Source: a virus
Direction: 5' to 3' (one strand)
Length of the DNA: 46,660 nt
Virus record (IMG/VR): IMGVR_UViG_3300045938_000011
Coordinates: 1 to 46,660 of that record
Of the stretch, positions 549 through 21,477 are shown piece after piece (within the stretch, counting starts at the first letter, position 1; every line of letters starts with the position of its first letter). The notes under the pieces were generated by a model. It saw only the letters and a list, made by a program, of their open reading frames with translations. It did no database searches and was not told where the DNA came from. The translations under genes and the position numbers were made by a program.

Positions 549-1271
549 ATGGCGCCGCGCGTTTTCCACCCGTGTCAGTTCAATTTCGCGGACGACGACA
601 TGCGGGTCGACGGGTCGACGATCAGCGGCGGTGTGTCCCTGTCGGGCTACGAGGACGTCATTCGCAATGACGGCGGCGGCTTCTGGCGGGCGGACTTCAC
701 GGGCGGCGACTTCGGCGACCGCGACGATGCGGGGCGCGCGGACACGCTGGCATGGCGGGCGCTGAACGCGGGTATGCTGGGTGGATCGGTAGCGGTGATC
801 GTCCGCTTCTGTGACAAGCTGCATCAGCCGGTCCTTGGATCGGCGCTGGTCCCGCATAGCGACGACACGCCGTTCAGCGACGACAGCCTATACCAAGGGT
901 CGGGCGCGAATGGGCGTGTGCTGGCGGTCGTCAACGGGCAGGCGGGCGGCAATCGAGCCACTGTCCTCGACATATCGCTGACTGCTGGTCGTGACCTCAT
1001 CGGCGGAGAGCGCTTCACCCATGTCCACCCCGAATGGGGCGAGCGGGCGTATGAGATCTACAGCGTCGAGCCGGTGACCGGCGGACTGCGCGTGACCTTC
1101 CAGCCTCCGATCCGTGGCGGCATCTCGGTCGGTGACCCGCTCGACTTCGACGATGTGCGGTGCCGGATGCGGCGCGTGTCGCAGCCATCCAATCCGCTGA
1201 ACATGGGCGCATTCTCGACTGCGTCGATCAGCTTTCAGGAGGACATGCGGCCTCCGGTGGCGATGCCGTGA
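549..1271 (+). CDS. Tail-tip module protein (distal-tail-protein position), family not recognised
   Basis: Track ORF of 240 aa and the first gene after the tape measure. Its stop overlaps the next start (GTGA). Confidence 0.6.
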   Translation: MAPRVFHPCQFNFADDDMRVDGSTISGGVSLSGYEDVIRNDGGGFWRADFTGGDFGDRDDAGRADTLAWRALNAGMLGGSVAVIVRFCDKLHQPVLGSALVPHSDDTPFSDDSLYQGSGANGRVLAVVNGQAGGNRATVLDISLTAGRDLIGGERFTHVHPEWGERAYEIYSVEPVTGGLRVTFQPPIRGGISVGDPLDFDDVRCRMRRVSQPSNPLNMGAFSTASISFQEDMRPPVAMP

Positions 1272-1810
1272 ACCGCAATCTACTGATCCGCATCGCGACC
1301 AACCCCCCGGCAAGGCTTTGGTCCGGGTCAGGCGACCTGCTGCTGCCGGCTGATGACGTCGAGACAGACGATTCAGCGCGCTACCTGGGCGGCGGCGAGC
1401 TGGTATCCGGTCTGGACGAGCTGGAGCAGCTTATCAACGGACGCGCGGATCGGCTCGATATCAATCTGGGCGGGGTGACAGCAGCGACGGTCAAGCTGGC
1501 TCTGGAAGAAGCGGCCGACGTGAAGGGCGCGGCGGTCGATATCGGCGTCGCGGTGTTTGATGACCTCTGGCAGCTGGTCGCGGTCGAGTGGCAGACCCGG
1601 TACATCGCTGACAAGCTCGGTATCGATCGGCAGCAGGCGTCGCGCGCGATCACCCTGTCGATGCGGTCGGATGATACCGGCCGGTCGCGGACGCCGAACA
1701 CCTATTGGACCGATGCGGATCAGCGCCGGCGTTCACCGACCGACCGCGCCTTCGAGCGGGTCTCAGGCCTAAATGCCGGAACGTCCCGCAATTTCGGGCC
1801 GAACGGGTGA
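1268..1810 (+). CDS. Tail-tip module protein, family not recognised
   Basis: GTG at 1268 overlaps the previous TGA, in the same frame as track ORF 1160..1810. Product is 180 aa. Confidence 0.55.
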   Translation: MNRNLLIRIATNPPARLWSGSGDLLLPADDVETDDSARYLGGGELVSGLDELEQLINGRADRLDINLGGVTAATVKLALEEAADVKGAAVDIGVAVFDDLWQLVAVEWQTRYIADKLGIDRQQASRAITLSMRSDDTGRSRTPNTYWTDADQRRRSPTDRAFERVSGLNAGTSRNFGPNG

Positions 1811-2196
1811 GGGTTGCGGACTATCTCGGCGCGCCGCGTCCTGCATGGGACTGGGTGGCGCTCGACTGCTGCCGGTGGGTCGATGGCTGGGTCCAGGCGC
1901 GCGGCTTCGTCAGCCCGATTGCGGCACTGGGCTTGACCTATGATAGCGAGCGTTCGGCACTGCGCTGCATCCGCAAGGCCGGTGGGCTGGTGCCGCTATG
2001 GCGCAAGGGCATGGCGCTGGTCGGCGTCGAGGAAGCCGACGCGCCCATGGTCGGATCGGTAGGCGTGATCCGCCGCGCGACGTCGTGCGGCAGGAACGAA
2101 GCGGCAGCAATCTTTACGGGCGACCGCTGGGTGTCGCTGGGCCTGCGCGGCCTCGATTTCGGCCCCGCCGAGGCACTGGCGGTGTGGCATGTCTAA
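1807..2196 (+). CDS. Small tail-associated protein, possibly NlpC/P60-like
   Basis: GTG at 1807 overlaps the previous TGA, in the frame of track ORF 1705..2196. The LDCCRWVDGW motif and the position after hub-like genes match GTA-type tails. Confidence 0.45.
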   Translation: MRVADYLGAPRPAWDWVALDCCRWVDGWVQARGFVSPIAALGLTYDSERSALRCIRKAGGLVPLWRKGMALVGVEEADAPMVGSVGVIRRATSCGRNEAAAIFTGDRWVSLGLRGLDFGPAEALAVWHV

Positions 2197-4126
2197 GACG
2201 CTCAACAGCGTGCTGCGCGTCGCGGCAATTGCGGGCTTGGCCTACATCACTGGCGGCGTGGCGCTGGGCGTGGCTGGTGGCTTGAGCGTCGGGACCGCCT
2301 TTGCAGGCGTGGCGGGTACGCTGGGCGTGTCTACCTCGACATTGGCTATTGCGACCGTGACGACGGCCGCGCGCGTCTTTGGCGGCGGGAGCAGTCCTGC
2401 ACCGAAGGCTGAGACGACCGCAACCGCGCTGCGCACCGAGCGCCCGCCCCGCATTTCCGCCTATGGCCGCGTCAAGCTATTCGGCGCGTACATCCTGTAC
2501 GAGACTGCCGGCGACGGTACGGCGGTCGATGCATGGGCGTTCCACGAAGGGCGCATTGACGCGATCGAGGCGTGGTATCTCGGCGATAAGCTGGTGACGC
2601 GTCTGTCGAACGGCTTCGTGGCACGCGGCGAGGATGGGGCATATGGTGCCAACGACGTAATCCAGATTGGCGCCAATCTGGGCGCGGCGACCGAGACTGC
2701 GCACGCCGCGCTAGTCGCCAAGCTGCCCGGCATCTGGACGGTCGACCATCGCGGCGATGGCGTCGTCACCGGCTACATGATTTCGAAGCCGGTCAAGGCG
2801 AAGTACTTCCAGGAGGTCTACCCGTCCGGCGGCCCCAATCAGACGCCGCTCGCGATCGTCATTCGCGCGCAGCCGGTATTTGACTGGCGTGACCCGTCGC
2901 AGTCGGTGAATGACCCTCTGACGTGGAAGTGGTCGGAGAATGCCTGGCTGCATATCGCGCATTACGAGCTGGTGAGGAACGGCAAGTCGTGGGAGCGGCA
3001 TTTCCTGCCGACGCTCGCGTTTTGGACGGCGGCGGTAGATGACGCCGACTTGGCCGTGCCGCTCAAGTCCGGCGGCACCGAGCCGCGCTATCGGTCGTGC
3101 GTCAGCCATCGTCATGCGGGGGACGGGTCTGAGCATAAGGCGGTGCTGGCGGCGCTGCTGGGCTGCTGTGACGGGTGGCTATCGCCTAGGCAGGACGGCG
3201 CACTCGTGCCGCGCGCTGGCCGGTATTACCCACCCGTTGTCAGCATCGGGCCAGATGTTGTCGTCGCCTATTCGGTCGAAGACGGCATTGAGGACGAGAA
3301 CGCCATCAATCAGATCGGCGTGACCTATGTCTCGGCCGCGCATGATTACAATACTGTCGACACCGATGCTTGGACGGACGAAACTGATATTCTGGCGCGC
3401 GGCGCGATCCGCTCGGACGATCTGCCCAATCAGGTGCCGTCGCACGCTCAGGCTCGCCGTCTAGCCAAGCGCCGCATGGCTCAGGCGATGGCCCCGAAGC
3501 GTGGGACGTTCGTCACGACCAGCGCCGGGGCTGCTATCCTCGGCGAGCGGTACATTGACCTGCTGCTGGCCGAGGGCGTCGGCACGGACGATGAGTTCGT
3601 CGCTTATGATGGCCCGGTTGAAATCACTCAGCTATCGCGCAATCTTCAGACTGGCGCGGTGTCTGCGTCGTGGATCGCGGCTGATCCGAACATCGACGCG
3701 TGGAACCCCGCGACCGAGGAAGGCGAGCCGGCACCGACCGGTGATCGTATCGCGCGTGAGCCGCTGGAAACGCCGATGATTATCAGCGCGTCCGCCGTCT
3801 TCAGCCCGGTCGGCCAGAACCCGGAGACGGAGGACCCTGAAGGCGCTCCGGTTGACGGCACACAATCGACGGGCGCGCGAGTACTGATCGCAGCCACCGG
3901 CCCTGATCGCCCGGATATGACGTGGTACGCGCGGTGGCGAGTCGGCACCACGGGTAGCTGGAATGAGCGGGAATATGCCGACGCTGACCCCGGTCCCGGC
4001 GTGTCTTTCGAGACGGAATTCGTGCCGCTGGCCGCAAACATCAACGTCCAGGTGGCCTATTCAGTTGGCGACGGTCGTCTGTCCGATTGGTCACCGTCGT
4101 CCGTAGTCGACACCCGCCCCGCATGA
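2189..4126 (+). CDS. Central tail fibre / host specificity protein (lambda J / Phage-tail_3-like)
   Basis: 645 aa with a hydrophobic Gly-rich N-terminus. RISAYGRVKLFGAYILYE..HEGRIDAIEAWYLGDKL resembles the conserved J-like core. It lies last in the tail-tip block. Confidence 0.65.
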   Translation: MSKTLNSVLRVAAIAGLAYITGGVALGVAGGLSVGTAFAGVAGTLGVSTSTLAIATVTTAARVFGGGSSPAPKAETTATALRTERPPRISAYGRVKLFGAYILYETAGDGTAVDAWAFHEGRIDAIEAWYLGDKLVTRLSNGFVARGEDGAYGANDVIQIGANLGAATETAHAALVAKLPGIWTVDHRGDGVVTGYMISKPVKAKYFQEVYPSGGPNQTPLAIVIRAQPVFDWRDPSQSVNDPLTWKWSENAWLHIAHYELVRNGKSWERHFLPTLAFWTAAVDDADLAVPLKSGGTEPRYRSCVSHRHAGDGSEHKAVLAALLGCCDGWLSPRQDGALVPRAGRYYPPVVSIGPDVVVAYSVEDGIEDENAINQIGVTYVSAAHDYNTVDTDAWTDETDILARGAIRSDDLPNQVPSHAQARRLAKRRMAQAMAPKRGTFVTTSAGAAILGERYIDLLLAEGVGTDDEFVAYDGPVEITQLSRNLQTGAVSASWIAADPNIDAWNPATEEGEPAPTGDRIAREPLETPMIISASAVFSPVGQNPETEDPEGAPVDGTQSTGARVLIAATGPDRPDMTWYARWRVGTTGSWNEREYADADPGPGVSFETEFVPLAANINVQVAYSVGDGRLSDWSPSSVVDTRPA

Positions 4127-4187
4127 CGGCGGTACGGCTAGCAATCCCCAGCCTTAGCGTGGCCGCGACGCTGGTTCGGAGATAGTC

Positions 4188-6281
4188 GTGGGTGAGATTG
4201 CAGACGGCTTTGCCGACACCTTCCGGGATTACACTATCGGCAATTTGCCTTCTGCTGGCGCGTATGAGCCGAAAAAGTCGGAAATCAGGGCTTTGGCATT
4301 GCCCATTGAGGCGGGCATCGCAGCGGCGGCACTGTCTGGCACCGATCTGAACCAGGCCATGACGCTGGTCGCGCCGCTTCTTGTTACGGCGCAACGGGCG
4401 CGAACCGCAGCCGAAAGGGCAGCATCTGACGTAACCCGCGTGGTCAATGCAATCCCGGCACAAGTCAAGGCCCAGCTCGATGGCGCCGCCGCCAAGGCAG
4501 TCGTAACCGCCACCGCCGAGGCCAAGGGCTACGCGCAGGACGCACGCCGCTACCTGTTCGCGTTCCCCGACTATTATCAGGGGTCGCCCGGTGGCGACGC
4601 CGGCCAGTTTGGCCTATTCACTGTCATCCCCACGATGAATTTTGCAGCGGGCATCAACCGCATTCAGTCGACCGGATTCGCTTCCCGGGGCGATGGCGGT
4701 GAGTTCGCCTATACCCGATGGTCCGAGCCGCTGGACCCACTGCCGACCGAAGGTGAAGGCGTGTGGTGGAATAGGGGGCTGGACGGGTCAATCTGGCAGA
4801 TCGCCCCGGCGGATGAACACCCGGCGCAAGCTTTCGGCGCGCTCGGTGACCCGGAAGTCGACACCGCCCCAATCTTCAATGCCGCCCTTTCCGCACCACA
4901 GGTCCGCCGCATCAACATCGGCCCGCTGACGCACCTTTTCACCCCACAGATCACCGTACCGAGCGGCAAGGCCCTGCGCGGCGTCAATCGGTCGGTGTCC
5001 TGGATGAAGGTCATGCCGCTGCCGGTCGGACAGACGCAGACCGGTCCGCGCTTTGCGATCGTGCATCAGGACGACACGGGCGGGCTGTCGGAGGACTATT
5101 CGCTCGATTGCCAGAGGTCCGGGCTTGGGCGCGGCGACACGAACCGCACGCACGGCCTCTGCATCATCGCGACCAACGAAGGTCGCTGTGAAGGTACCCG
5201 CATCCGCCGCGTCGACGTGCATAACGTCTGGGGCTACGCGCAGTACACGGTCGCCGCCGCTCTCAGCAACGCGGAGATCGTAGACATCGCGCACGAGGAC
5301 TGCCGGGCGATAAATTGTCAGGTGGGCTTCGAGACGACGGGCAATATCGATGCCAGCTGGTCGCGCGACACCTATGCTTTCGGCGGCGCAATGGACGGCG
5401 GCACGGTGATCCCGAACGAGGCGCTGTATCATGAGTACGGCGCAATCAAGTCGTTCGACCGGTACAATGCGACCGGGCGCGGAACGGCAGGCGCGGGTAT
5501 TCTCGTCTTCACGACCGATGGCGTCGACTTGGGGCGGGTGAAGTATCACAATCCCGACGTGGTGCCGAATGTGGGCACGGGCACGGCGCTGTTCGTCGAG
5601 GGTCGCGACGGCAACCGGGTCCAGCAATTCGAGATTGAAGGCGGCGACGTCATCAGCAGCGCGCAGGGCGCACTGGTCCGCAACGCCGGTATGGTCATTC
5701 GCGGGACCAACATTGTCGGCCTGAACGGCAACGGACTGGAAATCGGAACCGGCGGCGATGTGGACCTGCACGCGCCTACCGTCGAAGCCAATCGCGACGC
5801 CAGCGGCACGACGGCGGCGGTTGGCATCGTGGTCGACGGCACCGGCACCCGGCGCTGGTACGGCAGCGGGCGGATCGCGGCGAATGGTCCTGCGGGTTCG
5901 TACTCGGTCAACAAGTCGCTGCTGACGTTCTTCGGCGATCCCGAGTTCGATCCGTTTGGTGATCCGATCCCGCCGCAACCCGGGAGCGTCGTGCGGCAGC
6001 GCATGTTCCGTATCCCCCGCGCCGACTGGATTACTAATGGAACGCAGGACCTGCAGGTGCGGATCGACCTCACCGCCGCGCAGGAAGACCGCGTCGCGGA
6101 CATCGACAAGGCGCATCTGATTCCGACGCTTGAATTCCCCTTCCCTAACGGTGGGGTCAATAATCCGACCGTGACCTTCTCGACCCTCTGGATCGATCCG
6201 ACACAGGTCCGAGTCTACGTGAAGTGCGATCAGCCCCTGACTGGATGGGTGCTGAAGGCCCAGCTGACCGAATACGCGTAA
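4188..6281 (+). CDS. Tail fibre / tailspike with a pectate-lyase-like beta-helix (putative polysaccharide depolymerase)
   Basis: 697 aa with a GTG start after GGAGA. AFGALGDPEVDTAPIFNAAL resembles the Pectate_lyase_3 entry motif. Downstream segments are repetitive and rich in G, N and V. Confidence 0.6.
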   Translation: MGEIADGFADTFRDYTIGNLPSAGAYEPKKSEIRALALPIEAGIAAAALSGTDLNQAMTLVAPLLVTAQRARTAAERAASDVTRVVNAIPAQVKAQLDGAAAKAVVTATAEAKGYAQDARRYLFAFPDYYQGSPGGDAGQFGLFTVIPTMNFAAGINRIQSTGFASRGDGGEFAYTRWSEPLDPLPTEGEGVWWNRGLDGSIWQIAPADEHPAQAFGALGDPEVDTAPIFNAALSAPQVRRINIGPLTHLFTPQITVPSGKALRGVNRSVSWMKVMPLPVGQTQTGPRFAIVHQDDTGGLSEDYSLDCQRSGLGRGDTNRTHGLCIIATNEGRCEGTRIRRVDVHNVWGYAQYTVAAALSNAEIVDIAHEDCRAINCQVGFETTGNIDASWSRDTYAFGGAMDGGTVIPNEALYHEYGAIKSFDRYNATGRGTAGAGILVFTTDGVDLGRVKYHNPDVVPNVGTGTALFVEGRDGNRVQQFEIEGGDVISSAQGALVRNAGMVIRGTNIVGLNGNGLEIGTGGDVDLHAPTVEANRDASGTTAAVGIVVDGTGTRRWYGSGRIAANGPAGSYSVNKSLLTFFGDPEFDPFGDPIPPQPGSVVRQRMFRIPRADWITNGTQDLQVRIDLTAAQEDRVADIDKAHLIPTLEFPFPNGGVNNPTVTFSTLWIDPTQVRVYVKCDQPLTGWVLKAQLTEYA

Positions 6282-6339
6282 CGGAGCGCGCCAAAGCGGA
6301 CGCGCTGAAGCTCGACGAAGAAGCCGAGAACGAAGGAGA

Positions 6340-6432
6340 ATGAGAATGCGACAGGTTCCCACGAGTCCGCCCAGCCCTACGCCGACGCCTACCCCGACGC
6401 CGCCGGCCAAGCCGACTGGCAGTCCGAAGTAA
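6340..6432 (+). CDS. 30-aa Pro/Thr-rich micro-protein (MRMRQVPTSPPSPTPTPTPTPPAKPTGSPK)
   Basis: Below the track cutoff. The ATG is preceded by GAAGGAG, and its TAA overlaps the next ATG (TAATG at 6430-6434). Confidence 0.4.
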   Translation: MRMRQVPTSPPSPTPTPTPTPPAKPTGSPK

Positions 6433-6893
6433 TGGGCACCGCGACCATCCTGTACGGAGCTGGCTGCGCGGTGACGCTGTGGCTTGCGCGCAATGACGAC
6501 CGGCGCCTTTCGCTGGCGTTCGCGCTGGCCTACGTCTGGATGGTCGCGAACGCCGCGTATCACATCGATGCGATGATGACGCTGGTACTGGTCGACGTGC
6601 TGGTAGCGAGCCTTGCTGCCTGCATCGGGCGCGGACCGGCCATGGACGAGATCGTCATTCTGTCGGCGGCACGGGTCGGACTGCACATCGCGAGCGCTAT
6701 GGGGGCACCATACGAAGCGTTCGCGTGGGGGTATAACGCCACTTTCGCGGCCATGCTGGCGTCGGTGGCATCCAACGGGGGGATTGTCGGTGGACTACGC
6801 GATTGCGGCCGCGCTTGGCGCAATCGCCGTGGCCGGGGTGGTGGGGGAGCATTTCGGCTTGCGTCGCCTGTGGCGACGCTGGCGGGGGCGTAG
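6432..6893 (+). CDS. Polytopic membrane protein at the head of the lysis cassette
   Basis: Track ORF of 153 aa with about four hydrophobic helices, translationally coupled to its neighbours. Confidence 0.6.
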   Translation: MGTATILYGAGCAVTLWLARNDDRRLSLAFALAYVWMVANAAYHIDAMMTLVLVDVLVASLAACIGRGPAMDEIVILSAARVGLHIASAMGAPYEAFAWGYNATFAAMLASVASNGGIVGGLRDCGRAWRNRRGRGGGGAFRLASPVATLAGA

Positions 6894-7340
6894 ATGATGC
6901 TCAGCACCGTCGAAGCAATCCTTTCAAAAGGTACTGCGAGCGGATGGACGCTATGCGTGATCGGGCTAGTCGGCCTCTTTGGCATCTGGCGCATCTACGT
7001 GCTGCAAAGCCCGAAGCGCCGGGAGCAGGATATTGCTGAGGACGCGCAATTGCGGGTCGAGAAGCGCGACGACATCGCCAAGCTGACCGACCGAATCGCG
7101 CTGCTGGAACGCAAGGTCGAAGAAGCCAACACGTCGGCTCACATGACCCAGATGAAGCTGGTCAGCACGCTGGCAGCTTTCCGCCTACTGGCGAGCGAAT
7201 TGCAGAAGGTCGATCCCGACAACCCCGTACTGAAGCAGGCGATGGACCTAATCGGGTTGGCCGCGACCGACGACTTCGGCGTGGGGGCGGGGCTGTCCCA
7301 CCTCGCGCGCCTCAACACCATGAAGGGGGTAGGGGATTAA
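6894..7340 (+). CDS. N-terminally anchored coiled-coil protein (i-spanin-like or holin regulator)
   Basis: 148 aa with one TM (WTLCVIGLVGLFGIWRIYVL) followed by a long charged helix. Its stop overlaps the endolysin ATG (TAATG). Confidence 0.55.
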   Translation: MMLSTVEAILSKGTASGWTLCVIGLVGLFGIWRIYVLQSPKRREQDIAEDAQLRVEKRDDIAKLTDRIALLERKVEEANTSAHMTQMKLVSTLAAFRLLASELQKVDPDNPVLKQAMDLIGLAATDDFGVGAGLSHLARLNTMKGVGD

Positions 7341-8008
7341 TGGACAAGAAAGCCACCCAGCAGCGCCTAGGCGTAACGCCAGACGGCATCTTCGGCATCG
7401 GCAGCTATAGCGCGCTGCTGCGCGTCGTGGGGCCATCGGCCGACCCTGCCGTGATCCGTTCGCTCGCCAACGCCTGCACGATCCACCTGCCGGCCTATGG
7501 CGTCGACCAGTCAGTAACCCGCCTTGCTGACTTCTTTGCACAAACTGCAAATGAGACGGGCGGCTACCGCGTGTTCGTCGAGAACCTGAATTACAGCAGC
7601 GAGGCGTTGGTCCGCACGTGGCCGTCGCGGTTCACGCCCGCCAGTGCCGCACAGGTCGCCCGCAAGCCCGAATTGATCGCCGACAAGGTGTATCAGGGCC
7701 GCATGGGCAACACGCAGCCCGGCGATGGCTGGGCATTCCGGGGGCGAGGCATGCTCCAGCTCACCGGCCGCGCGAATTACGAGGCGGCGGATCGGCGCTT
7801 GGGGCTGGGGCTGGACACCAATCCCGACATTGCCGCCGTACCCGCTATGTCGCTGCTGATTGCATGCGATTTCTACCGCGACCGCAAGGTGTTCGACGCC
7901 CTGGATCGCGGCGACACGACCGGGGCGCGACGCATCACGAACGGCGGCACGATCGGGCTGGATCACGTCAATGCACTGCGGGCGAAGCTGTTGGAGGTGT
8001 TGCGGTGA
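7340..8008 (+). CDS. Endolysin: PG_binding_1-like N-terminus plus a GH19 (chitinase-like) muramidase domain
   Basis: LGVTPDGIFG is a peptidoglycan-binding motif. FFAQTANETGG and FRGRGMLQLTGRANY are GH19 signatures. Confidence 0.85.
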   Translation: MDKKATQQRLGVTPDGIFGIGSYSALLRVVGPSADPAVIRSLANACTIHLPAYGVDQSVTRLADFFAQTANETGGYRVFVENLNYSSEALVRTWPSRFTPASAAQVARKPELIADKVYQGRMGNTQPGDGWAFRGRGMLQLTGRANYEAADRRLGLGLDTNPDIAAVPAMSLLIACDFYRDRKVFDALDRGDTTGARRITNGGTIGLDHVNALRAKLLEVLR

Positions 8009-8010
8009 GC

Positions 8011-8220
8011 ATGGACGAAGAAACCCGCGACCTGATCGCCTTCCTCGCTACGCTGGTGTCGATCGTGCTGCTGTCGAAGATTGGCGGCACCGGCAGCGAC
8101 CTTGCCATCATGACCGGTCTGGTCGGCGTGCTGGGTATGCTGGTCGGGTCAAAGCGGTCGAAGCGTGGCCCCACAGGCACGCCTACTGACCCCGTATCTG
8201 TGGAGGAAACCAAGCCATGA
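8011..8220 (+). CDS. Holin candidate (two TM helices, charged C-terminus)
   Basis: The ATG lies 3 nt after the endolysin stop, in the frame of track ORF 7618..8220. Product is 69 aa, with LIAFLATLVSIVLL and LAIMTGLVGVLGMLVG followed by SKRSKRG. Confidence 0.6.
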   Translation: MDEETRDLIAFLATLVSIVLLSKIGGTGSDLAIMTGLVGVLGMLVGSKRSKRGPTGTPTDPVSVEETKP

Positions 8221-8378
8221 AGATCAACATCAAGAAAGCTGCCACCTCGGTCGTAAAGACCGTGAAGGAGAACCCCGAAACCGCGCTGGCGATCGTGTCG
8301 CTGCTGGCACCGGGCCTGTTCCGCAAGCTGGCTCCCAAGGTCGTGCCGATCATCGTGGCTGCGGCGGGGAAGCGGTAG
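8217..8378 (+). CDS. 53-aa small membrane protein, last gene of the lysis cassette
   Basis: Below the track cutoff. It has an ATGA overlap with the previous stop. Sequence is MKINIKKAATSVVKTVKENPETALAIVSLLAPGLFRKLAPKVVPIIVAAAGKR. Confidence 0.45.
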   Translation: MKINIKKAATSVVKTVKENPETALAIVSLLAPGLFRKLAPKVVPIIVAAAGKR

Positions 8379-8379
8379 C

Positions 8380-8456
8380 TGGCCTGCCCGGCAGGATTCG
8401 AACCTGCACTCTCGGGAATAGAAGTCTCGTGGCCTATCCAGTTGGCCTACGGGCAG
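8380..8456 (-). tRNA. tRNA-Arg, anticodon UCU, with encoded CCA
   Basis: Hand-folded 77-nt cloverleaf. Acceptor CTGCCCG/CGGGCAG, D arm GGCC-AACTGGATA-GGCC, anticodon loop CT-TCT-AT, T arm GCAGG-TTCGAAT-CCTGC, then G-CCA. There is one A:C mismatch in the anticodon stem. Confidence 0.85.
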
Positions 8457-8766
8457 GCAAAAGCTAGTACTGCGGGTGCCTGTCCTAGATATTTAAGACC
8501 CACACGCTCGGCACCGGGTAGTAGGGTCTGGCTATCGTAAAGCCCACCTCGCGGTCGCAGCCCCACCACCCTACACGACTCGCGGGATTCCGCAAGTTCC
8601 GCTTTGTCAACGGGGCGGGGTGTGGTAGTTTCGTCGCGCTCCGATGGATATGGCATCCGCCTATGGCGTAAGCTGATGACCCTGAGCACGATGGGTGGCG
8701 ACGAATAGGCTGGCAACGGCGGCATCTGCGTCACAATCGGGAACCCGCAACCCGGCCACCCACTTT

Positions 8767-8842
8767 AGGGCAGCCCGATCGGCGGGGGTGTACGGAAAGC
8801 GCGCCGTGCATTTGGCGGGTTCGATCCCCGCCAGCCCTGCCA
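8767..8842 (+). ncRNA. Degenerate tRNA-like element (perfect T arm, acceptor and CCA; non-canonical D and anticodon arms)
   Basis: 76 nt. Acceptor AGGGCAG/CAGCCCT pairs at 6 of 7 positions. T arm is GCGGG-TTCGATC-CCCGC, followed by G-CCA. Internal hairpins are CCCG-ATCGG-CGGG and GTACGG-AAAGCGCG-CCGTGC, the latter with an 8-nt loop. Confidence 0.45.
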
Positions 8843-8865
8843 ACTATCACCAACCCCCGTTGTCG

Positions 8866-9399
8866 CTAACCGAACAGCCATCCACTAGCAGCAACGACCA
8901 CCGCCAGCCCGACCAGCGCCGTCGCCACCCCGGCCCAGAACTGGTGGCTTGCGAGGATGGGGCGGCGGCGGCGCGGATGTGGCATTGCGTCACGCTCTTC
9001 CATCCATGCGATCAACTCAGCCGAAGGCTTGTATTCGTTGCCCCATTGACGTCGAGAGAGGTCATGGGACACGGCCTTGCCAATCCGGCAGCGAAGCGAA
9101 CCGCCGTCATCTTCAACGTCCCACAGCCTCCATTCGCCGTTCACGTCATCAACGTCGCGACTCCAATAAATGCCGGGCTTGGTAGGGACCGACCGGACAA
9201 TCGCTTGTGGATTGTCGATTGCCACAATGAACTCTCGGCGAAGTTCTGCCAAACGTGCGATAGCATCCGATTTTTCGGAATACTGCTCGTCGGTTATCAT
9301 ATTGTTCCAGAATACGCTGTATGTGCCGTTAGCGCCCTTGTGCAGACCGCTCGTAGCAATGATCGCGTTTGCTAAACCTGCAGGATCGGGGGTGGTCAT
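8866..9399 (-). CDS. C-terminally membrane-anchored protein, unknown function
   Basis: Track ORF of 177 aa with the C-terminal TM FWAGVATALVGLAVVVAASGWLF. Third-position GC is visibly lower than in neighbouring genes. It is the last gene of the accessory operon. Confidence 0.7.
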   Translation of the reverse strand: MTTPDPAGLANAIIATSGLHKGANGTYSVFWNNMITDEQYSEKSDAIARLAELRREFIVAIDNPQAIVRSVPTKPGIYWSRDVDDVNGEWRLWDVEDDGGSLRCRIGKAVSHDLSRRQWGNEYKPSAELIAWMEERDAMPHPRRRRPILASHQFWAGVATALVGLAVVVAASGWLFG

Positions 9400-9560
9400 G
9401 GGTTGGCATCCTTATCCTCAGCGATCCATAGCCACGCCATCATGAGAATGAAGACGGCACAGGCGCCCCAATATGCCTGAGAACCGATGAGCATGCCAAA
9501 GCATATCCCGCCGCCGAACACGCCACGCGGATAGCGATCATAGTGCGTCTTGATCCTCAT
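9396..9560 (-). CDS. 54-aa membrane micro-protein
   Basis: Below the track cutoff, with ATGA overlaps at both ends. Sequence is MRIKTHYDRYPRGVFGGGICFGMLIGSQAYWGACAVFILMMAWLWIAEDKDANP. Confidence 0.5.
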   Translation of the reverse strand: MRIKTHYDRYPRGVFGGGICFGMLIGSQAYWGACAVFILMMAWLWIAEDKDANP

Positions 9561-10249
9561 ACCCCCTCAACCTTCGCGGGCTGGGATTTCAGGGCGAGGA
9601 TGGCGTCGGCGACGAGATTGATTTGCAGGGTAAGTCCGGCGATGTGTTCGGCGAGGATGGCCGCGATCTTCGCGCGCTCCTGCACAATATCCCGCTCCCC
9701 CACCGCTGCGCGCGGGCGGGCGAGGGCTGCTGCAAGGTGAGCGGACAGCCAGCGAATACGCTCCTTGGCGGCTGTCTGCCAGACGATGAGGTCGAGGTCG
9801 TCTCGTCCGGCCAGATAGACGGCGTTCGCAAGAGCCATGTCGGACAGGTCGCCTTTGCACAGCGTCGATCGGCCAAGGCGCGTACATGCACGGGCTATTG
9901 CCGCGCCGTCCCCGCCATCCCAATGCCCCGGAAGACTATCAGGCAACTCCCCATCCCCGGCAGGCGCGGAGGCGAACTCGTGACGATCGGGCACAGGTTC
10001 GGCAGGCGCGGAGGCGAGGGCGGCAAGGCGATACGAGGCGTGGGCCTGTTCGCTGACCATGCGGGCAGCGTTCCGGTAAGCCTTCGCCTCGGCACGCAAT
10101 TTTGGCACCGCACAGACATTGCCGGATTGAGCGTACAGCGAGCCTTGCTGGTCGCATTCGTCAGCGCACGCGATCAGGTATTCCTTGATAGCCTCCCGCT
10201 CCACCGTCACCGGCGCGTCGTTCGTGGGGGTCATGCGGGGGTCGGTCAT
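9557..10249 (-). CDS. Hypothetical protein, 230 aa
   Basis: Internal ATG of track ORF 9557..10492, chosen because it forms an ATGA overlap with the upstream gene's stop at 10246. Confidence 0.6.
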   Translation of the reverse strand: MTDPRMTPTNDAPVTVEREAIKEYLIACADECDQQGSLYAQSGNVCAVPKLRAEAKAYRNAARMVSEQAHASYRLAALASAPAEPVPDRHEFASAPAGDGELPDSLPGHWDGGDGAAIARACTRLGRSTLCKGDLSDMALANAVYLAGRDDLDLIVWQTAAKERIRWLSAHLAAALARPRAAVGERDIVQERAKIAAILAEHIAGLTLQINLVADAILALKSQPAKVEGV

Positions 10250-10479
10250 CGCTTGCACCTTTCGACAATGAGAATGCGGGTGCGCTGGACCAGATCGGCA
10301 GCCTGCACCGCGTGGGGGTCGTGACGCGCCATCAGCACGCACCAAGATTGCAGCCGTGACAGCTCGTCCAGCAGCTTGCTCGCTTCGTCGTCGGTGGATC
10401 GTGGCGGCAGGACTTCGCTGCTCGGTCGCAGTCGGGCTGCATCCATTCTCGACAGCATCGCATCGCGCGCGTCCGTCAT
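10246..10479 (-). CDS. Hypothetical protein, 77 aa
   Basis: Start at MTDARDAML, preceded by GGAGAA, in the frame of track ORF 10246..10566. Confidence 0.55.
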   Translation of the reverse strand: MTDARDAMLSRMDAARLRPSSEVLPPRSTDDEASKLLDELSRLQSWCVLMARHDPHAVQAADLVQRTRILIVERCKR

Positions 10480-10481
10480 GC

Positions 10482-10742
10482 TCACTTCGCATTCTCCTGT
10501 TTCAGGTGCTGGGCGACGCGGAGGCCGAGGTCGGACAGGACCGTGTCGCGGCGAGACGAGCGCCAAGAAAAATCAGGCACGGCCAGATAGACCAGCCCCA
10601 TCGCGTGCAGCTTGTCACGCACCCGTCCAGCATTGGGCACATGCCAGCGACCAGGGCGGCGTTCTTCTGCCCTAAAGATCGCCTCGCGCTGCGGTTTCGT
10701 AAGGCGGCGCGCAATTGCCGCGACCTCTGCGTCAGTCTGCAT
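10482..10742 (-). CDS. Hypothetical protein, 86 aa
   Basis: Track ORF, in operon register with its neighbours. Confidence 0.6.
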   Translation of the reverse strand: MQTDAEVAAIARRLTKPQREAIFRAEERRPGRWHVPNAGRVRDKLHAMGLVYLAVPDFSWRSSRRDTVLSDLGLRVAQHLKQENAK

Positions 10743-11217
10743 GGGGGTGGTCCTTTGGTGCAGGGAGCATGGGCAGCATCGAAGGCATGGCGCTGATGCG
10801 ATAGGCCTCAGCTACCTGCGGCCGCATCCAGTCCCCGGCGGTCTGTCCATCGGGTAAGACGATGTTCGCTAGGAACTCATCGTCAAAGATGCTGATGCCG
10901 CTGTCGACCGCTTCCAGTTTGGCCTTGATGACCAAGGCGAGGGCGCGCCAGCGTTGGCGGACCGCCTGATCCCATTCCTTGGTCGCGGCGTCTGGTGTCC
11001 GAGCGCCCCGGCTATGATGCGTGAAGCGCTGCTCGTCGCGACGCGGCATTGGCAGGACAAAGCGGATATGCCGGCCGCCCAATCGAAAGCCGATCGTCGC
11101 GGCGTCGTCGTTCCAGCCATAAAGGAACTGATCGGCGCCGTAGCGGATCAGGGTGCGCTCGATCTCGTCACGCGACGCATTGGCGCTGACGCTAGTGGAT
11201 GCTGCGTACTTGCTCAC
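10732..11217 (-). CDS. Hypothetical phage protein, 161 aa
   Basis: Track ORF with a GTG start forming a GTGA overlap with the upstream stop. RQRWRALALVIKAKLEAV is reminiscent of a widespread uncharacterised prophage family. Confidence 0.65.
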   Translation of the reverse strand: MSKYAASTSVSANASRDEIERTLIRYGADQFLYGWNDDAATIGFRLGGRHIRFVLPMPRRDEQRFTHHSRGARTPDAATKEWDQAVRQRWRALALVIKAKLEAVDSGISIFDDEFLANIVLPDGQTAGDWMRPQVAEAYRISAMPSMLPMLPAPKDHPHAD

Positions 11218-11564
11218 CCCCGTTCTCCGAGGGCTTGGAGGGCGGCGCGGGCGTGGTCCTCGTAGAGGTGCCAGTGCCGCTCCACGTAGCCACGTCGATT
11301 GAAGCGGTGCAGGTTCACCGGGATTTGCTGAGTACAGATCGCGCGGGCTACCAGTTCCACCCGCACCACGTCCGCATCGCGGCCTTCGATTGGCGGGGTG
11401 GGGGTGGGCAGCGCCAAGATCGCATCGGCAGCGCGATAATCGACATCGGCAGTCGGATAGTCACCGGGCACACCGAGGCCGGGATACAGCGAACCGCCAT
11501 ACGCACGGGCCACGATCTGCGCGATTTCCTCGCGACGTTCGCCCGCAGGCACGCCCCCGCTCAT
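11214..11564 (-). CDS. Hypothetical protein, 116 aa
   Basis: Internal ATG (MSGGVPAGERREE) of track ORF 11214..11720, with an ATGA overlap to the upstream stop. Confidence 0.55.
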   Translation of the reverse strand: MSGGVPAGERREEIAQIVARAYGGSLYPGLGVPGDYPTADVDYRAADAILALPTPTPPIEGRDADVVRVELVARAICTQQIPVNLHRFNRRGYVERHWHLYEDHARAALQALGERG

Positions 11565-11758
11565 GCCGAGGGGCCTGATAGGCGGTAGGCGATGATGTCG
11601 CGATCGTCGCCACGATGCTCCCATACGACGGGGCGCATGTTGCCGTGCCAAGCCTTCATTCGCAGCACGTCGCCGTTGCGGTGCTTGCGTTCGAAGTGGA
11701 GGCCCGATGCTACCGGACACGATCCACCATCATGCTCAATCCACGCATTCTCGCTCAT
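11561..11758 (-). CDS. Hypothetical protein, 65 aa
   Basis: Track ORF with 4-nt overlaps on both sides. Confidence 0.55.
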   Translation of the reverse strand: MSENAWIEHDGGSCPVASGLHFERKHRNGDVLRMKAWHGNMRPVVWEHRGDDRDIIAYRLSGPSA

Positions 11759-12423
11759 GCTGCGGCTCCTTCGGTGAGGGGGGTGGGGGAGGCTGTCCGC
11801 GCGATCGAAATGAGAAGGTCGCGGAAGGCTGGCGGGGTGCCGATCCGGGGCGCGCTGTCCGTGCCGCCACCACGGGCGCCTACCTCACCAAGCCGTTTTG
11901 CGCGCGCGAGACCCATTCGCTTGATCACGGCCGGATCAAGCCGCGGTTCGCCCTTGCCCCAGTCAAGCTCGGGACGGTCGCAATCTACGACGTAGAGAAG
12001 CGTTGGCTTACGAGCATAGTGACCGTAGCGGCCTTGCTCGATGCAGCACGTCCAGCCATACCGGCCGCCACCGAGATAGTCGGCAGCCTTCCACCCTCCG
12101 AAGCGCGACGGGACGTTCAGCCCGAAGTGTGGCCAGGCATGGCTGCCCCACGGATGCTCAATGACACCGCCATACTGCCGAACAGCGGCCAGCGCTGCTG
12201 CGAAGCATCCTTCGTCATCGCCTTTGACTTTGCGGATGCCGGTACGCTTGATGAACAGCGGCTGCCCAGCCCACAGCTTGCCCCACCGCTGGCAGGGAGG
12301 ATGCGCTACGACCGGATGCGGTCCGGCATAGCGTCGCGCGTCCCGCGCTTCGTCCCACGGATCTACGCCCGGCAGGCCGAAGTAGCATCCGTCCGTTTCC
12401 ACATATAGCGCCGCGACCGTCAC
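11755..12423 (-). CDS. Cytosine-C5-methyltransferase-like protein (PPCQ motif) with no recognisable SAM-binding motif I
   Basis: 222 aa with a GTG start 6 nt after GGAGG. VVAHPPCQRWG resembles motif IV. GDDEGCF..QYGGVIEHPWGS lies where the motif V/VI (ENV) block would be. No FxGxG is seen. Confidence 0.5.
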   Translation of the reverse strand: MTVAALYVETDGCYFGLPGVDPWDEARDARRYAGPHPVVAHPPCQRWGKLWAGQPLFIKRTGIRKVKGDDEGCFAAALAAVRQYGGVIEHPWGSHAWPHFGLNVPSRFGGWKAADYLGGGRYGWTCCIEQGRYGHYARKPTLLYVVDCDRPELDWGKGEPRLDPAVIKRMGLARAKRLGEVGARGGGTDSAPRIGTPPAFRDLLISIARTASPTPLTEGAAA

Positions 12424-12441
12424 GCCTTGCCTCCGTAAAGT

Positions 12442-12496
12442 GTGCCGTTTATATAAACGGTGCCGTTTACATACGCAACAGAAAAGGGTGCCGTTT
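12442..12496. promoter_or_regulatory. Divergent control region with three direct GTGCCGTTT repeats and the palindrome CCGTTTATATAAACGG
   Basis: Repeat copies lie at 12442-12450, 12460-12468 and 12488-12496. The perfect 16-bp palindrome is at 12445-12460. A fourth TGCCGTTT copy lies at 12754-12761. Confidence 0.6.
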
Positions 12497-12510
12497 TCTT
12501 GCCAGACGCG

Positions 12511-12702
12511 ATGATGCCCGCTACGGCGCGCCCGATGGGACGACCGCCACTGAACCTAACCCGCGTGCCGGTGAGGCTATCGCCGGAAGCGCTGGAGCGT
12601 ATCGATGCGTTGGTCGGGATGTACGGCCGCGCGGCGTTCGTGCGGGAAGCGGTGGAACGGGAGCTTGAGCGCCGCGAGAAGGGCGACGACTCAGCTGTTT
12701 GA
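12511..12702 (+). CDS. Ribbon-helix-helix (CopG/Arc-type) DNA-binding protein
   Basis: MGRPPLNLTRVPVRLSPEALERIDALVGMYGRAAFVREAVERELERRE fits a beta-strand/helix/helix pattern. The start is uncertain (12460 GTG, 12511 ATG or 12535 ATG). Confidence 0.7.
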   Translation: MMPATARPMGRPPLNLTRVPVRLSPEALERIDALVGMYGRAAFVREAVERELERREKGDDSAV

Positions 12703-12824
12703 CTAACCGCCCCAAAGGCGGCTTGTCTAACCGCTACGCGACTCGCGCGTTTCTGCCGTTTCTGGAGGGGGATGGTGGCCTCGGAGGGACTGCAATTATC
12801 GTTTAGAATCAACGTCATATTTGC

Positions 12825-13943
12825 CTACCCCTGAGTCTTTCCGTCGTTTTCGCCCTGAGATGCAGATGGCGATTGGCTAACCGGATTCCCGGTCGAATAG
12901 CGGTCAACGATCAGCTCCATTGCGTCGTCGGCCAGCCCCTCTTGAGCAGCGGCGGCGGTGTACAGCGCGACCTCTGCGTCACCCTTCCAGCCACCGACAG
13001 CCTTAATGCCTGCCTGCGTCGCCTTGCTCTGCGCCGCGCGTCTGGCAATGGCCTTCCGCAGTCCGTGCAGGCCGCAATGGGGGAGGCCAGCCTCATTCGC
13101 CCATTCGCGGAAGCGGTTGCCGAAACCGTCCTTGCTGAACGGTTTGCCGTAGGCGGTCACAAGAAAGCTGTTGAGGCCGACCGATGGCATCGCATCGATA
13201 GCGCGCTTGAGGTCCGGCGCGATCGGCAACCAAAGGTCGGCCGCGTTCTTCGACGCCTGATAGTTGATCTTGCCGCGCTGGATATGGCGGGGGCCGAACA
13301 GCCGCGCGTCGCCACGACGCTGCGCTGTCCACAGCACGATCTCCAACGCGAGGCGCGCCGACGTGCCAAGCGGGTGCTTCGCCTGGTACTGCGCAATCTC
13401 AGCCTCGGTCCACGTGTGGAATCCGGTCAGCTTCCGCTTGCCCACGGTGTCGGCTTCCTCGACCGGGTTCTTGCCGATCCATTTCAGCTTCACGGCATAG
13501 GCGAACAGGCGTCGCAGCTGCTTGCGCAGGTTGTGCGCCGCGACCTGCCCGCCGACCGTGCGGCCCTTGGCGTTGACGGTCTTGTGCGTGCGTTGAATCA
13601 GAATACCTTCGATATGCTCAAAGCTGAAATCGCTGACCAAATCGTCCCCAAAGTCAGCGCGGAAGCTCTCGATCAGCCCCCGGCGTCGCGCTTTGTCGTT
13701 CGCACCGCCTTTCGCCATGAAGTCGGCACTGGCATAGTAGCGGGTGCATAGATCGCTGACCGACCCCGGCTTTGTCCGGTTCTCAATCGCCTTGCTGGTC
13801 AGCGCCTTGTATTCAGCGTCGAACCCCGGCGTGTCGGGAAGGTGCTTCATGTAGGCGGCCGGATAGCCCGCCTTCCGAAAGCGAGCGCGCAGCTTCCCAT
13901 GCCTGTCGGGGCTGACCGTCACATTCGGATAGCGGGTCTTCAT
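12825..13943 (-). CDS. int: Tyrosine recombinase / phage integrase
   Basis: 372 aa. The catalytic region carries AQRRGDA, HGLRK and a C-terminal LYT, consistent with the R-H-R-Y signature. Confidence 0.9.
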   Translation of the reverse strand: MKTRYPNVTVSPDRHGKLRARFRKAGYPAAYMKHLPDTPGFDAEYKALTSKAIENRTKPGSVSDLCTRYYASADFMAKGGANDKARRRGLIESFRADFGDDLVSDFSFEHIEGILIQRTHKTVNAKGRTVGGQVAAHNLRKQLRRLFAYAVKLKWIGKNPVEEADTVGKRKLTGFHTWTEAEIAQYQAKHPLGTSARLALEIVLWTAQRRGDARLFGPRHIQRGKINYQASKNAADLWLPIAPDLKRAIDAMPSVGLNSFLVTAYGKPFSKDGFGNRFREWANEAGLPHCGLHGLRKAIARRAAQSKATQAGIKAVGGWKGDAEVALYTAAAAQEGLADDAMELIVDRYSTGNPVSQSPSASQGENDGKTQG

Positions 13944-14131
13944 CGGGGGCCAAAAATCTTCCGGTCTAGCGGGTTCTCGCGGCTGCGATCTTCCATCGGC
14001 TCGTTACCGCAGTCCATCACGATATTGCCGAGCGGGTCGATGCTGATCCGCACCCGAGTGAACGCAGCCTTCTTGGCGCCTTTCAAAGCCCGCGCCACGT
14101 CATTCTCCGTGAACCGTGCTACAGCCCCCAT
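13940..14131 (-). CDS. 63-aa protein translationally coupled to int (excisionase candidate by position only)
   Basis: Internal ATG (MGAVARFTENDVARALKGAKKA) of track ORF 13940..14203. It has an ATGA overlap with the int start and a 1-nt stop/start overlap (TCA/CAT at 14129-14133) with the upstream gene. Confidence 0.5.
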   Translation of the reverse strand: MGAVARFTENDVARALKGAKKAAFTRVRISIDPLGNIVMDCGNEPMEDRSRENPLDRKIFGPR

Positions 14132-14517
14132 CACCCCACCTCCCGCTGCACGATAGGCGCGTGGTCCCGGTTCGCGAGGTCCAGCAGCACGTCGGCGTGG
14201 CACCAGTCACCCAGGCGGCACCAGCAAGCGAGGTTCTTGCCGCGTAGAGCTTCAATACGCTGGCTCCAACGCGTGTCGGTCAAGACCAATCGCTTGAAGG
14301 CAGCGACTGCCTGCGGAGCGTTCAGGTACATCCCGTTTTCGTCCGGCATCCCGAGTTTGTAGGGGTTCCCGAATGGCCCCGGCCGGGCGACTGACACCGT
14401 ATTCTCCGGCATCCGCCAGCCCTTCTTGCGCGATAGCTGGACACGATGTGGTCGGCTCTCCCGCGCCTCCATCACATTCGCCGCCGCTTGGCCTTGCATG
14501 TCGGTGGTGGTGGTCAT
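14131..14517 (-). CDS. DUF4326-like protein
   Basis: 128 aa. RGKNLACWCRLGDWCHADVLL matches the conserved Cys/His block of that family as I recall it. Confidence 0.6.
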   Translation of the reverse strand: MTTTTDMQGQAAANVMEARESRPHRVQLSRKKGWRMPENTVSVARPGPFGNPYKLGMPDENGMYLNAPQAVAAFKRLVLTDTRWSQRIEALRGKNLACWCRLGDWCHADVLLDLANRDHAPIVQREVG

Positions 14518-20721: not shown

Positions 20722-21402
20722 TTATACTCGCCGGATAACGCCGACGACACGGCCGATAAAATGCACCTCGTCTTCCGATGCGATAATCGGGCGGACGTTC
20801 GGGTTGTCGCTGTTGATCTCGAACTGGCCATCGGGCCGCGACCGGACGCGCTTGATCATGCCGAACTGGCCATATGCGATGGCCCAGATACGATCCTGCG
20901 AGTTGAAGCGCCGCACGCTGCGGTCGATGATGATGATGTCGCGATCCAGTATGGTCGGCATCATGCTGTCGCCTTCGCCGCGCGCAACCATCAGCACGGA
21001 CGCCGGAGAATTCGTTAGCGTTTCCAGCCACGCCCGGCTCATTGGGACCATCTGAACGACCGGAAACTCGTCGTTTACAGAACCGCCGCCCATGGAATAG
21101 GCGACCTCAACCTCTGGTAGAAGCACCGCGTCCAATTGAGCCGCTGCGTTCTCGTCGCTCATGGGGTCACTGTCGCCGAGCATCAGCGGCCCGCCGCGTA
21201 GAAGCCAGTCAGTCGGCACCCCCAGCTTGCCGGCGAACAGCGGCGCGTGCTTGGCGTAGCCATTCTGGCCGCTCTCATAAGCACGGTAGGTGACCGGCTT
21301 CATGTCCACGACCCGCGCGAAGTCGGCAGCATCGGGATACTTGCGAAGCCGCGCCCAGGTCAGGCGTTCTTCAGGCGTGCGGAGTTCGGCGGGGTTTATC
21401 AT
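20722..21402 (-). CDS. cI-type repressor: XRE HTH plus an S24 (LexA-like) autopeptidase domain
   Basis: Start at MINPAELRTPEERL. The HTH is around FARVVDMKPVTYRAYESGQNG. The GDSMMPT serine motif and the downstream IKRV lysine motif are present. Confidence 0.85.
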   Translation of the reverse strand: MINPAELRTPEERLTWARLRKYPDAADFARVVDMKPVTYRAYESGQNGYAKHAPLFAGKLGVPTDWLLRGGPLMLGDSDPMSDENAAAQLDAVLLPEVEVAYSMGGGSVNDEFPVVQMVPMSRAWLETLTNSPASVLMVARGEGDSMMPTILDRDIIIIDRSVRRFNSQDRIWAIAYGQFGMIKRVRSRPDGQFEINSDNPNVRPIIASEDEVHFIGRVVGVIRRV

Positions 21403-21424
21403 GCCCGCTCTTTCGCACACAGCC

Positions 21425-21463: not shown

Positions 21464-21477
21464 AGCGTGCTTGCACT

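Follow-up and report, generated by a model that had tools for sequence, protein, structure and literature searches.

Two described arrangements frame the locus analysed here. In the immI region of phage P22 (mnt/Pant/arc-ant), a repressor gene of the ribbon-helix-helix (RHH) type diverges from the operon whose promoter it overlaps, and the region is independent of the cI-type immunity region. In phage lambda, the b region (ea47/ea31/ea59) holds non-essential accessory genes that lie beyond the phage attachment site (attP), downstream of int. The locus at positions 8866-12702 of the IMG/VR virus record IMGVR_UViG_3300045938_000011, a stretch of 46,660 nucleotides (nt) that was analysed as a whole and is called the window hereafter, shares traits with both: a CopG-type RHH gene on the plus strand diverges from an operon of nine genes (g1-g9) on the minus strand, just across attP from int. 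What is the conserved unit of this locus? We propose, with a probability of roughly 0.6, that it is a cassette of RHH repressor gene, operators and promoters that gates a hypervariable accessory array, and that the nine genes act individually. The nine genes found in the window are best read as an idiosyncratic, recombination-assembled assortment rather than as a nine-component system.

The likeness to P22 immI lies in the divergent arrangement of RHH gene and operon and in its separation from the main cI-type region. Unlike immI, which is situated within the late region, the present locus is att-adjacent and has neither an antirepressor nor a second RHH protein (Arc): the product of g1 does not belong to the RHH proteins, and searches of Pfam, PHROGs and NCBIfam matched none of g1-g9 to an Ant or Arc family. 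The lambda b region is similar in that its accessory genes share the strand of int, are situated immediately beyond attP and are parted from int on integration, but the lambda genes lack a dedicated RHH/operator cassette and their content is unrelated.

A third comparison is offered by the Aca regulators, among which the RHH-type Aca14 has been shown by experiment to repress its own anti-defence operon and a neighbouring operon (bioRxiv 10.64898/2026.07.27.740549). Like the Aca proteins, the RHH protein of the window is a predicted small DNA-binding repressor whose sites would overlap the -10 element of a promoter that would drive variable, mostly unannotated anti-defence or early genes in a mobile element. 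The cargo behind relatives of this RHH gene also resembles that of Aca loci, as it includes Acb3, Acb2/Tad1, Lar and orphan methyltransferases. In contrast to Aca, the regulator diverges from the regulated operon and is found neither within it nor as its last gene, and the operators are three or four direct repeats with a palindrome instead of a single inverted repeat. Further differences from the Aca loci are the alphaproteobacterial hosts, the fixed location next to attP and the absence of any known anti-CRISPR (Acr) gene. The prophage hotspots of P2 and P4 (PMC9122126) have the same fixed position, conserved flanking gene and very high cargo turnover; unlike theirs, the cargo here consists of small proteins and counter-defence-type genes, and PADLOC finds no defence effectors. 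The feature is best read as a variable accessory or anti-defence locus gated by a small repressor, Aca/Mnt-like in its logic.

The RHH gene and its putative operators

The RHH gene (12535-12702, plus strand) encodes a protein of 55 amino acids (aa) that begins MGRPPLN. The original prediction placed its start at 12511, which is likely 24 nt too far upstream, given that the call of the Joint Genome Institute (JGI) favours the ATG at 12535; all 49 of 49 aligned homologous sequences begin MGRP. The protein shares with CopG/RHH_1 repressors a beta-alpha-alpha sequence pattern, RHH_1 and PDB CopG matches and repeated operators, although its own match to Pfam RHH_1 (E-value 0.0012) falls just under the cut-off (19.2 versus 20.5 bits). 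Across the family, 12 of 49 members match RHH_1 (best E-value 4.9e-6), and the family profile matches the CopG regulators 7by2, 6iya and 7etr in the PDB at E-values of 0.003-0.008. The ribbon-helix-helix signature of a CopG-type repressor is present, and a weak resemblance to the prophage YlcI/YnfO N-terminal family is also seen. A toxin-antitoxin reading was ruled out because the RHH gene is divergent from the operon, is not co-transcribed with it and is accompanied by no toxin family match.

The spacer between the RHH gene and g1 contains the elements of a putative switch. Three copies of GTGCCGTTT occur in the window, at 12442, 12460 and 12488, all within 55 nt, against 0.41 copies expected in the window, and a perfect 16-bp palindrome, CCGTTTATATAAACGG, occupies 12445-12460, both as originally described. 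The copies at 12442 and 12460, with the palindrome between them, form the predicted operator cluster O1/O2 (12442-12468), which overlaps the -10 element and spacer of a putative cargo promoter on the minus strand (12450-12478; -35 TTGCGT at 12478-12473, 17-nt spacer, -10 TATATA at 12455-12450). The third copy, the predicted operator O3 (12488-12496), abuts the putative -35 element of the RHH promoter (TTGCCA, 12499-12504). The cargo promoter is proposed from sequence reading and from the alignment of relatives, whose -35 position holds GTTGAC. It resembles the alphaproteobacterial promoter consensus, CTTGAC-N17-CTATAT. The palindrome spans the -10 element (12450-12455) of a promoter that we infer and that the consensus scan missed. 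A fourth copy had been noted just past the RHH gene; this copy, TGCCGTTT at 12754, sits within attP and is probably no RHH site, because the relative L081, which has a different RHH operator (TGTGTAAC), also carries CTGCCGTTTT in its attP.

The gating part of the locus is well supported by comparison with relatives. An alignment-based scan finds RHH relatives of 38-89% identity encoded in 71 viral contigs, in which the spacer follows one order: the divergent start codon of the first gene, GCTTGCCTCC, repeat 1, TATATAAAC, repeat 2, GTCAAC, repeat 3, TTCTTGC, about 30 nt and ATGGG. GCTTGCCTCC is the complement of the ribosome-binding block GGAGGCAAGC, and GTCAAC corresponds to the -35-like element of the leftward promoter; the fixed ribosome-binding block of the cassette is GGAGGCAAG. 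The repeats are more than chance, because some 9-mer, counted with one mismatch allowed, is found three or more times at 41 of 69 related loci, within the 125 nt upstream of the RHH start and at conserved offsets from it (approximately -92/-74/-47 or -102/-84/-58/-23). Among 30 shuffles per locus, 0-2 reach at least three copies, and only one locus reaches 2.

The repeat word itself varies between loci and tracks the beta-strand of the cognate RHH protein, which is the DNA-reading element of the RHH fold. The strand LTRVPVRL is found with GTGCCGTTT, LKPVPVRL with TATCGTTTA, VKFTAIRL with TGTATAACG, VKYTAIRL with TGTGTAAC, EQTPARF with (G)TGATATCA, VKETKVRL with GGGGACG and TITTAVRL with GCGATGACG. 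Repeated, protein-specific candidate operator sites at the regulator's own or a neighbouring promoter are found in this way by sequence comparison. The claim that the unit has its own regulator and operator is borne out to the extent that the RHH/spacer module is kept in 71 viral contigs and that its repeats co-vary with the RHH beta-strand. The cassette would consist of the 55-aa CopG-type RHH repressor gene, three operator repeats, two divergent promoters and the fixed ribosome-binding block, and it appears to occupy the att-proximal end in many temperate phages of Alphaproteobacteria. Several contigs stop less than 1 kb past the RHH gene, which fits a position at a prophage end.

How would such a cassette operate? 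On phage entry or excision, host RNA polymerase would fire the cargo promoter, and the divergent promoter would yield the RHH protein from an mRNA that is leaderless or nearly so. The protein would then bind the palindrome and repeat pair O1/O2 over the -10 element and spacer, as well as O3 beside its own -35 element. Such binding would shut the array off and autoregulate the RHH gene, so that the prophage would keep the array low. The cargo is most likely of an early host-takeover or counter-defence type and would act as individual functions.

The proximity of int allows a different account, which we regard as improbable. The nine genes could be ordinary delayed-early "ea/nin-like" genes that are read mainly through int and attP in the circular genome, with the RHH cassette serving mainly to control integration, either through convergent transcription into int or at an xis/int promoter. 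The operon indeed shares the orientation of int and lies downstream of it. At 12 related loci, the RHH gene faces a convergent integrase gene of the same family that lies 5-640 nt downstream, on the other side of attP, and the 3' end of the RHH gene overlaps an arm site. In five relatives, the integrase belongs to the RHH-divergent operon, and two of these (L203 and L207) also have an xis-like gene. However, most relatives have a conserved promoter-like block and a ribosome-binding site immediately before the first cargo gene, regardless of what follows the RHH gene, and an integrase of this family is missing from the vicinity of many RHH loci. In the prophage, moreover, recombination at attP parts the operon from int.

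The nine genes and the cargo of related loci

The operon (8866-12423, minus strand) consists of nine open reading frames with the sizes and coordinates given in the original prediction: g1 (11755-12423, 222 aa), g2 (11561-11758, 65 aa), g3 (11214-11564, 116 aa), g4 (10732-11217, 161 aa), g5 (10482-10742, 86 aa), g6 (10246-10479, 77 aa), g7 (9557-10249, 230 aa; 225 aa in the JGI call), g8 (9396-9560, 54 aa) and g9 (8866-9399, 177 aa). The JGI calls on the source contig match for g2, g3, g5, g6, g8 and g9. The described stop-start chaining is evident at six of the eight junctions, which are 4-nt ATGA/GTGA overlaps, while the other two are an 11-nt overlap and a 2-nt gap. A GGAGG (12430-12434, minus strand) and a GTG start serve g1, likewise as described. 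None of the nine products has a match above noise in Pfam or NCBIfam, and their PHROGs matches are only to families of unknown function. A DNA search of GenBank phages with the whole region returns only short matches to g1 and g4.

Do the nine genes form one co-inherited system, self-contained as had been claimed? They do not, since g1 and g4 occur elsewhere without the other genes and the cargo shuffles independently. In the best 80 of the g1 loci among 280 viral-contig matches, g3-g9 are never found and a distant g2-like gene is found three times. Conversely, 70 RHH loci contain g1 only once (L176, as the third gene), a g2-like gene once (L165) and a g4-like gene once. The relatives of g1 and g4 lie elsewhere, for the most part within early-left operons in the neighbourhood of int and recombination genes. 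The closest g1 (88%) belongs to an early-left operon with the order cI-like repressor, ERF, SSB, g1, four small genes and int. The g4 gene of Sphingomonas prophages is located near the end of the early operon, two genes past a large ParB_N protein, and that of L097 is located between an exonuclease gene and int; the g7 domain in L150 lies between recT and a p128-like gene.

A mosaic relative, the 41-kb contig L230, combines several of these genes in a different setting. Its g3-like (the one distant relative of g3, 35% identity), g5-like and g7-like (52%) genes keep the same order inside an 18-gene early array after YqaJ and a helicase, and g3, g5 and g7 recur only there. The g5 relative has near-identical termini with a replaced middle, another gene carries the C-terminal peptide of g7, and 28 aa of g9 persist as a remnant. 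The g1-like gene (49%) belongs to a separate operon of opposite orientation. No RHH gene was found in L230, and the genes called in the 15 kb examined include no integrase domain. The early array also encodes a 68-aa protein (L230:9142-9348) with a match to the RF-1 (peptide chain release factor/peptidyl-tRNA hydrolase) domain. Taken from sequence comparison, the distribution of the nine genes points to gene-by-gene mosaicism and not to co-inheritance. The original prediction had stated that scattering of the genes as ordinary early genes in strictly lytic relatives would speak against a system; g1, g4 and g7 are scattered, but the relatives are mostly temperate.

The cargo behind the switch is not conserved in the relatives either. 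The 236 upstream cargo proteins of 66 RHH relatives fall into 210 clusters, 188 of which are singletons, and none matched g1-g9. The closest RHH protein (89% identical, in L159) has the same GTGCCGTTT operator, yet it is accompanied by seven unrelated genes and a different integrase. The recognisable proteins among 149 cargo proteins include C5 methyltransferases (five), Dam (two), Lar (three) and integrases (three). An Acb3 inhibitor of the cyclic-oligonucleotide-based antiphage signalling system (CBASS; L171, E-value 1.3e-69), one Acb2/Tad1 hairpin domain and an RtcB ligase (L226) are also encoded, together with HNH, SprT-like and other families. The recognisable cargo in relatives is thus of a counter-defence or early type, and this fast-turnover cargo includes known anti-CBASS, anti-Thoeris-type and anti-restriction genes.

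The position of the array nevertheless invites the view that it is a defence, exclusion or conversion cassette, expressed in the lysogen from the prophage end and tuned by its own RHH protein; for example, g7-g8-g9 may be a superinfection-exclusion or abortive-infection module. The array is att-adjacent, at the prophage end far from int, and defence systems are reported in the variable hotspots of P2/P4 prophages (PMC9122126). As originally reported, two products are membrane proteins, with hydrophobic, potentially membrane-spanning segments in g8 (residues 29-47), a small hydrophobic protein, and g9 (residues 152-177), which ends in a C-terminal hydrophobic anchor. The genes g8 and g9 have the lowest G+C content at third codon positions (GC3) and lie in the lowest-G+C region of the window, suggesting recent acquisition, and g9 is an ORFan: an exhaustive search of 1.84 billion representative proteins returned only g9 itself. 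Against this view, PADLOC yields no match for the nine products, and neither a defence-protein match nor multi-gene co-inheritance was found that would identify a prophage defence system. PADLOC reports only methyltransferases and one "cll" family match, with no recognisable defence effectors, in the cargo of the 66 related loci. The genes are small and are not co-inherited, their homologues occupy early lytic-type operons, and the predicted operators over the -10 element and spacer have a repressing geometry. A cassette expressed in the lysogen is therefore unlikely, and we favour an array of individually acting genes that the RHH protein would repress.

Several observations weigh against this preferred reading of a gated, counter-defence-type array. 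No product of g1-g9 matches a known anti-defence family in Pfam, NCBIfam or PHROGs, and the tentative counter-defence label comes from approximately 13 of the 149 cargo proteins in relatives, a count taken behind related RHH genes only. Cargo genes in the relatives were called crudely, from GC3, and a few of the resulting chains extend into structural genes. A promoter/terminator scan of the E. coli type found nothing in the spacer, where the putative promoters fail the consensus, and it is from the arrangement and its relatives that we infer repression, early timing and cargo function. The partial synteny of g3, g5 and g7 in L230 indicates that some neighbours travel together. Finally, the profile of g8 and g9, membrane proteins with a low GC3 (0.63 in g9, the lowest of the operon), also fits a superinfection-exclusion moron.

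A broader proposal is possible but doubtful at present: the RHH family with its co-varying direct-repeat operators may mark a previously unrecognised, widespread att-proximal counter-defence hotspot of alphaproteobacterial temperate phages, a divergently transcribed analogue of Aca loci. If so, the cargo of the window would include new anti-defence proteins, among them the g1 family (more than 7,000 members, with a degenerate C5-methyltransferase-like core) and the g4 family (more than 3,000 members), and the RHH gene could act as a guilt-by-association anchor for finding anti-defence proteins. The significance of the locus lies in the family-wide switch and in the g1 and g4 families rather than in the block itself. 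Recognising that the nine genes are not one system spares the cloning of the whole block as a unit. The cassette, compact and portable, offers a starting point for finding accessory genes, probably of counter-defence type, in alphaproteobacterial phages that have received little study, and its relatives form a natural set of orthogonal small repressor/operator pairs. The g1 and g4 families, both very large, conserved and of unknown function, are priority targets.

Features of the individual operon products

The first product, g1, was originally described as methyltransferase-like. Its family (phrog_12600) comprises 7,376 proteins at E-values of 0.001 or below, and the best matches are 75-88% identical. 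An identity of 70-88% is maintained over hundreds of otherwise unrelated contigs, which is unusually high conservation for a phage accessory gene; the alignment (A1) contains approximately 90 invariant positions, including HPPCQRWGK, EHPxxSHAW and YGHYARKP. The family has no Pfam domain. An AlphaFold2 (AF2) model of moderate confidence (predicted local distance difference test score, pLDDT, 76) repeatedly retrieves C5 cytosine methyltransferases as its best Foldseek neighbours, viral ones in BFVD as well as DNMT1/ZMET2, but the matches are weak (E-values 0.003-0.4, template-modelling (TM) scores 0.22-0.42).

Is g1, then, a minimal C5-cytosine methyltransferase-like enzyme, and the operon essentially an anti-restriction module with passengers? 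We consider this highly doubtful. The PCQ-like and EHP motifs, within HPPCQRW and EHP, are invariant or nearly so, the fold matches point repeatedly to viral cytosine methyltransferases or DNMT1, and among the recognisable cargo of related RHH loci, true C5 and Dam methyltransferases and Lar are the most frequent. However, every fold match is weak (E-value at least 0.003, TM score at most 0.42), Pfam PF00145 (DNA_methylase) gives no match, and hhalign assigns a probability of 0.1% to the pairing of g1 with two C5 methyltransferases from the cargo of relatives. The family profile has no match among PDB sequences, and neither an FxGxG S-adenosylmethionine (SAM) motif nor a target-recognition domain is visible in the 222 aa of g1. 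What speaks for the original label is the PCQ-type motif and the weak fold matches; Pfam, NCBIfam and profile comparisons do not back it. HPPCQRW and EHP keep a remote kinship with C5 methyltransferases possible. Structure prediction followed by Foldseek, which had been suggested for the products, gave weak C5-methyltransferase-like matches for g1 and no significant neighbour for the g4 model (pLDDT 69). We retain the reading in which g1 is one of several independent functions behind the RHH switch.

The g4 family (phrog_17260) has 3,210 relatives and is common in Sphingomonas prophages and mycobacteriophages; a peptide-pattern search of viral contigs gave no relatives of g4 or g9. The product of g2 is a small domain that larger phage proteins (phrog_9174, phrog_26870 and phrog_16943) also carry at their C-terminus, and relatives of g6 and g8 turned up in none of the fetched loci. 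The g7 protein contains a domain of approximately 75 aa that is common to 64 proteins of varied architecture, one of which is fused to a Lar restriction-alleviation domain (P0266). A perfect 18-nt direct repeat, CGGCAGGCGCGGAGGCGA, lies within g7 at 9958-9975 and 10000-10017 and encodes a duplicated ASAPA peptide. In the g7 homologue of L230, both repeat copies flank an extra segment of approximately 75 residues, a pattern that suggests repeat-mediated deletion or insertion.

Attachment site, tRNA genes and phage genome

The original prediction compared the location of the operon to the lambda b region, and mapping of attP supports an att-adjacent position of this kind. The attP region occupies 12699-12883, between the RHH gene and int, and the stop codon of int is 34 nt from its core. 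This core, TGGTGGCCTCGGAGGGACT (12773-12791), is complementary to the final 19 nt of tRNA-Arg(CCT) and is flanked by arm-type sites, TTGnCTAACCG, at 12699, 12723 and 12873. The arm motif has three matches in the window, all of them in attP, against 0.02 expected, and the first is overlapped by the 3' end of the RHH gene. Seven metagenome contigs contain tRNA-Arg(CCT) genes whose 3' end is identical to the 19-nt core, and one of them, L255, also encodes a relative of the integrase next to the tRNA gene. The relatives of int behave similarly, with a tRNA gene 50-130 nt past the integrase stop in about 30 of 43 bacterial-genome loci, and the attP layout in L081, L082 and L083 is two arm sites, core and two arm sites. 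The features of a tRNA-targeting attP of the lambda type, namely a core from a tRNA 3' end, arm repeats and an adjacent tyrosine integrase, are all present. Because attP lies between the RHH gene and int, integration puts the RHH/operon module at the prophage end opposite int.

The whole of attP, arms and core, is inverted relative to int when compared with the closest integrase relatives (L081-L083), and it is at the RHH end of the prophage, not the int end, that integration would restore a complete tRNA. In addition, a second fragment that resembles a tRNA 3' end, GGCGGGTTCGATCCCCGCCAGCCCTGCCA (8814-8842, plus strand; T-arm, acceptor strand and CCA), lies 23 nt below the g9 stop codon, which is overlapped by the adjacent arm-like sequence GCTAACCG. 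With this fragment and the attP core, the RHH/operon module is bracketed by two different, oppositely oriented tRNA 3' fragments. An exact search of viral contigs returned nothing for the fragment, which may be a relict att site left by an earlier integration module. As a candidate for the attP core, it was dropped in favour of 12773-12791, which has arm repeats, an int-adjacent position, a homologous core in L081 and an exact tRNA-Arg(CCT) match; a full tRNA-Arg(TCT) gene was dropped as the core on the same evidence.

The window as a whole is a complete genome of a temperate phage. An exact direct terminal repeat of 127 nt (1-127 and 46534-46660) shows that it represents a phage genome of approximately 46.5 kb, circularly permuted and either circular or terminally redundant. 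A second public data set contains the same phage, in which g2-g9 are 99-100% identical. The gene layout is lambda-like: tail genes and an endolysin gene (549-8008, plus strand) precede the nine-gene operon, and the tyrosine integrase gene int (12825-13943, minus strand), convergent with the RHH gene across attP, is followed by a small xis-like gene and then by RecT and an exonuclease. The cI-like repressor gene (20722-21624, minus strand) comes next, with the primase and structural genes after it. Relatives of both int and g4 suggest a host among the Sphingomonadales.

A few minor observations concern the composition and surroundings of the operon. The segment 9001-10000 has the lowest G+C content of the genome (0.597), and GC3 is 0.67 in g8 and 0.63 in g9 versus approximately 0.8 in int and the endolysin gene; these values suggest recent acquisition of the distal operon genes. 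At the related locus L012 (2872-3104), g1 lies 229 nt downstream of the integrase gene, and the gap contains three or four GTGTAACG repeats and no RHH gene. This word is the same as that of the L081 RHH operator, and the L012 repeats could either be regulated in trans or serve as arm sites for the integrase. An Rfam scan of 7500-14500 in the window detects only tRNA. The hit is a full-length tRNA-Arg(TCT) gene (8380-8456, minus strand; 60 bits) located just after the lysis genes and followed by approximately 350 nt of non-coding sequence. A tRNA-Arg(TCT) gene is the attachment site for some relatives of int (L111 and L138), and tRNA-like matches occur in L085 and L185; the copy in the window could be an att-site tRNA that was captured, or one that supplements codon usage.

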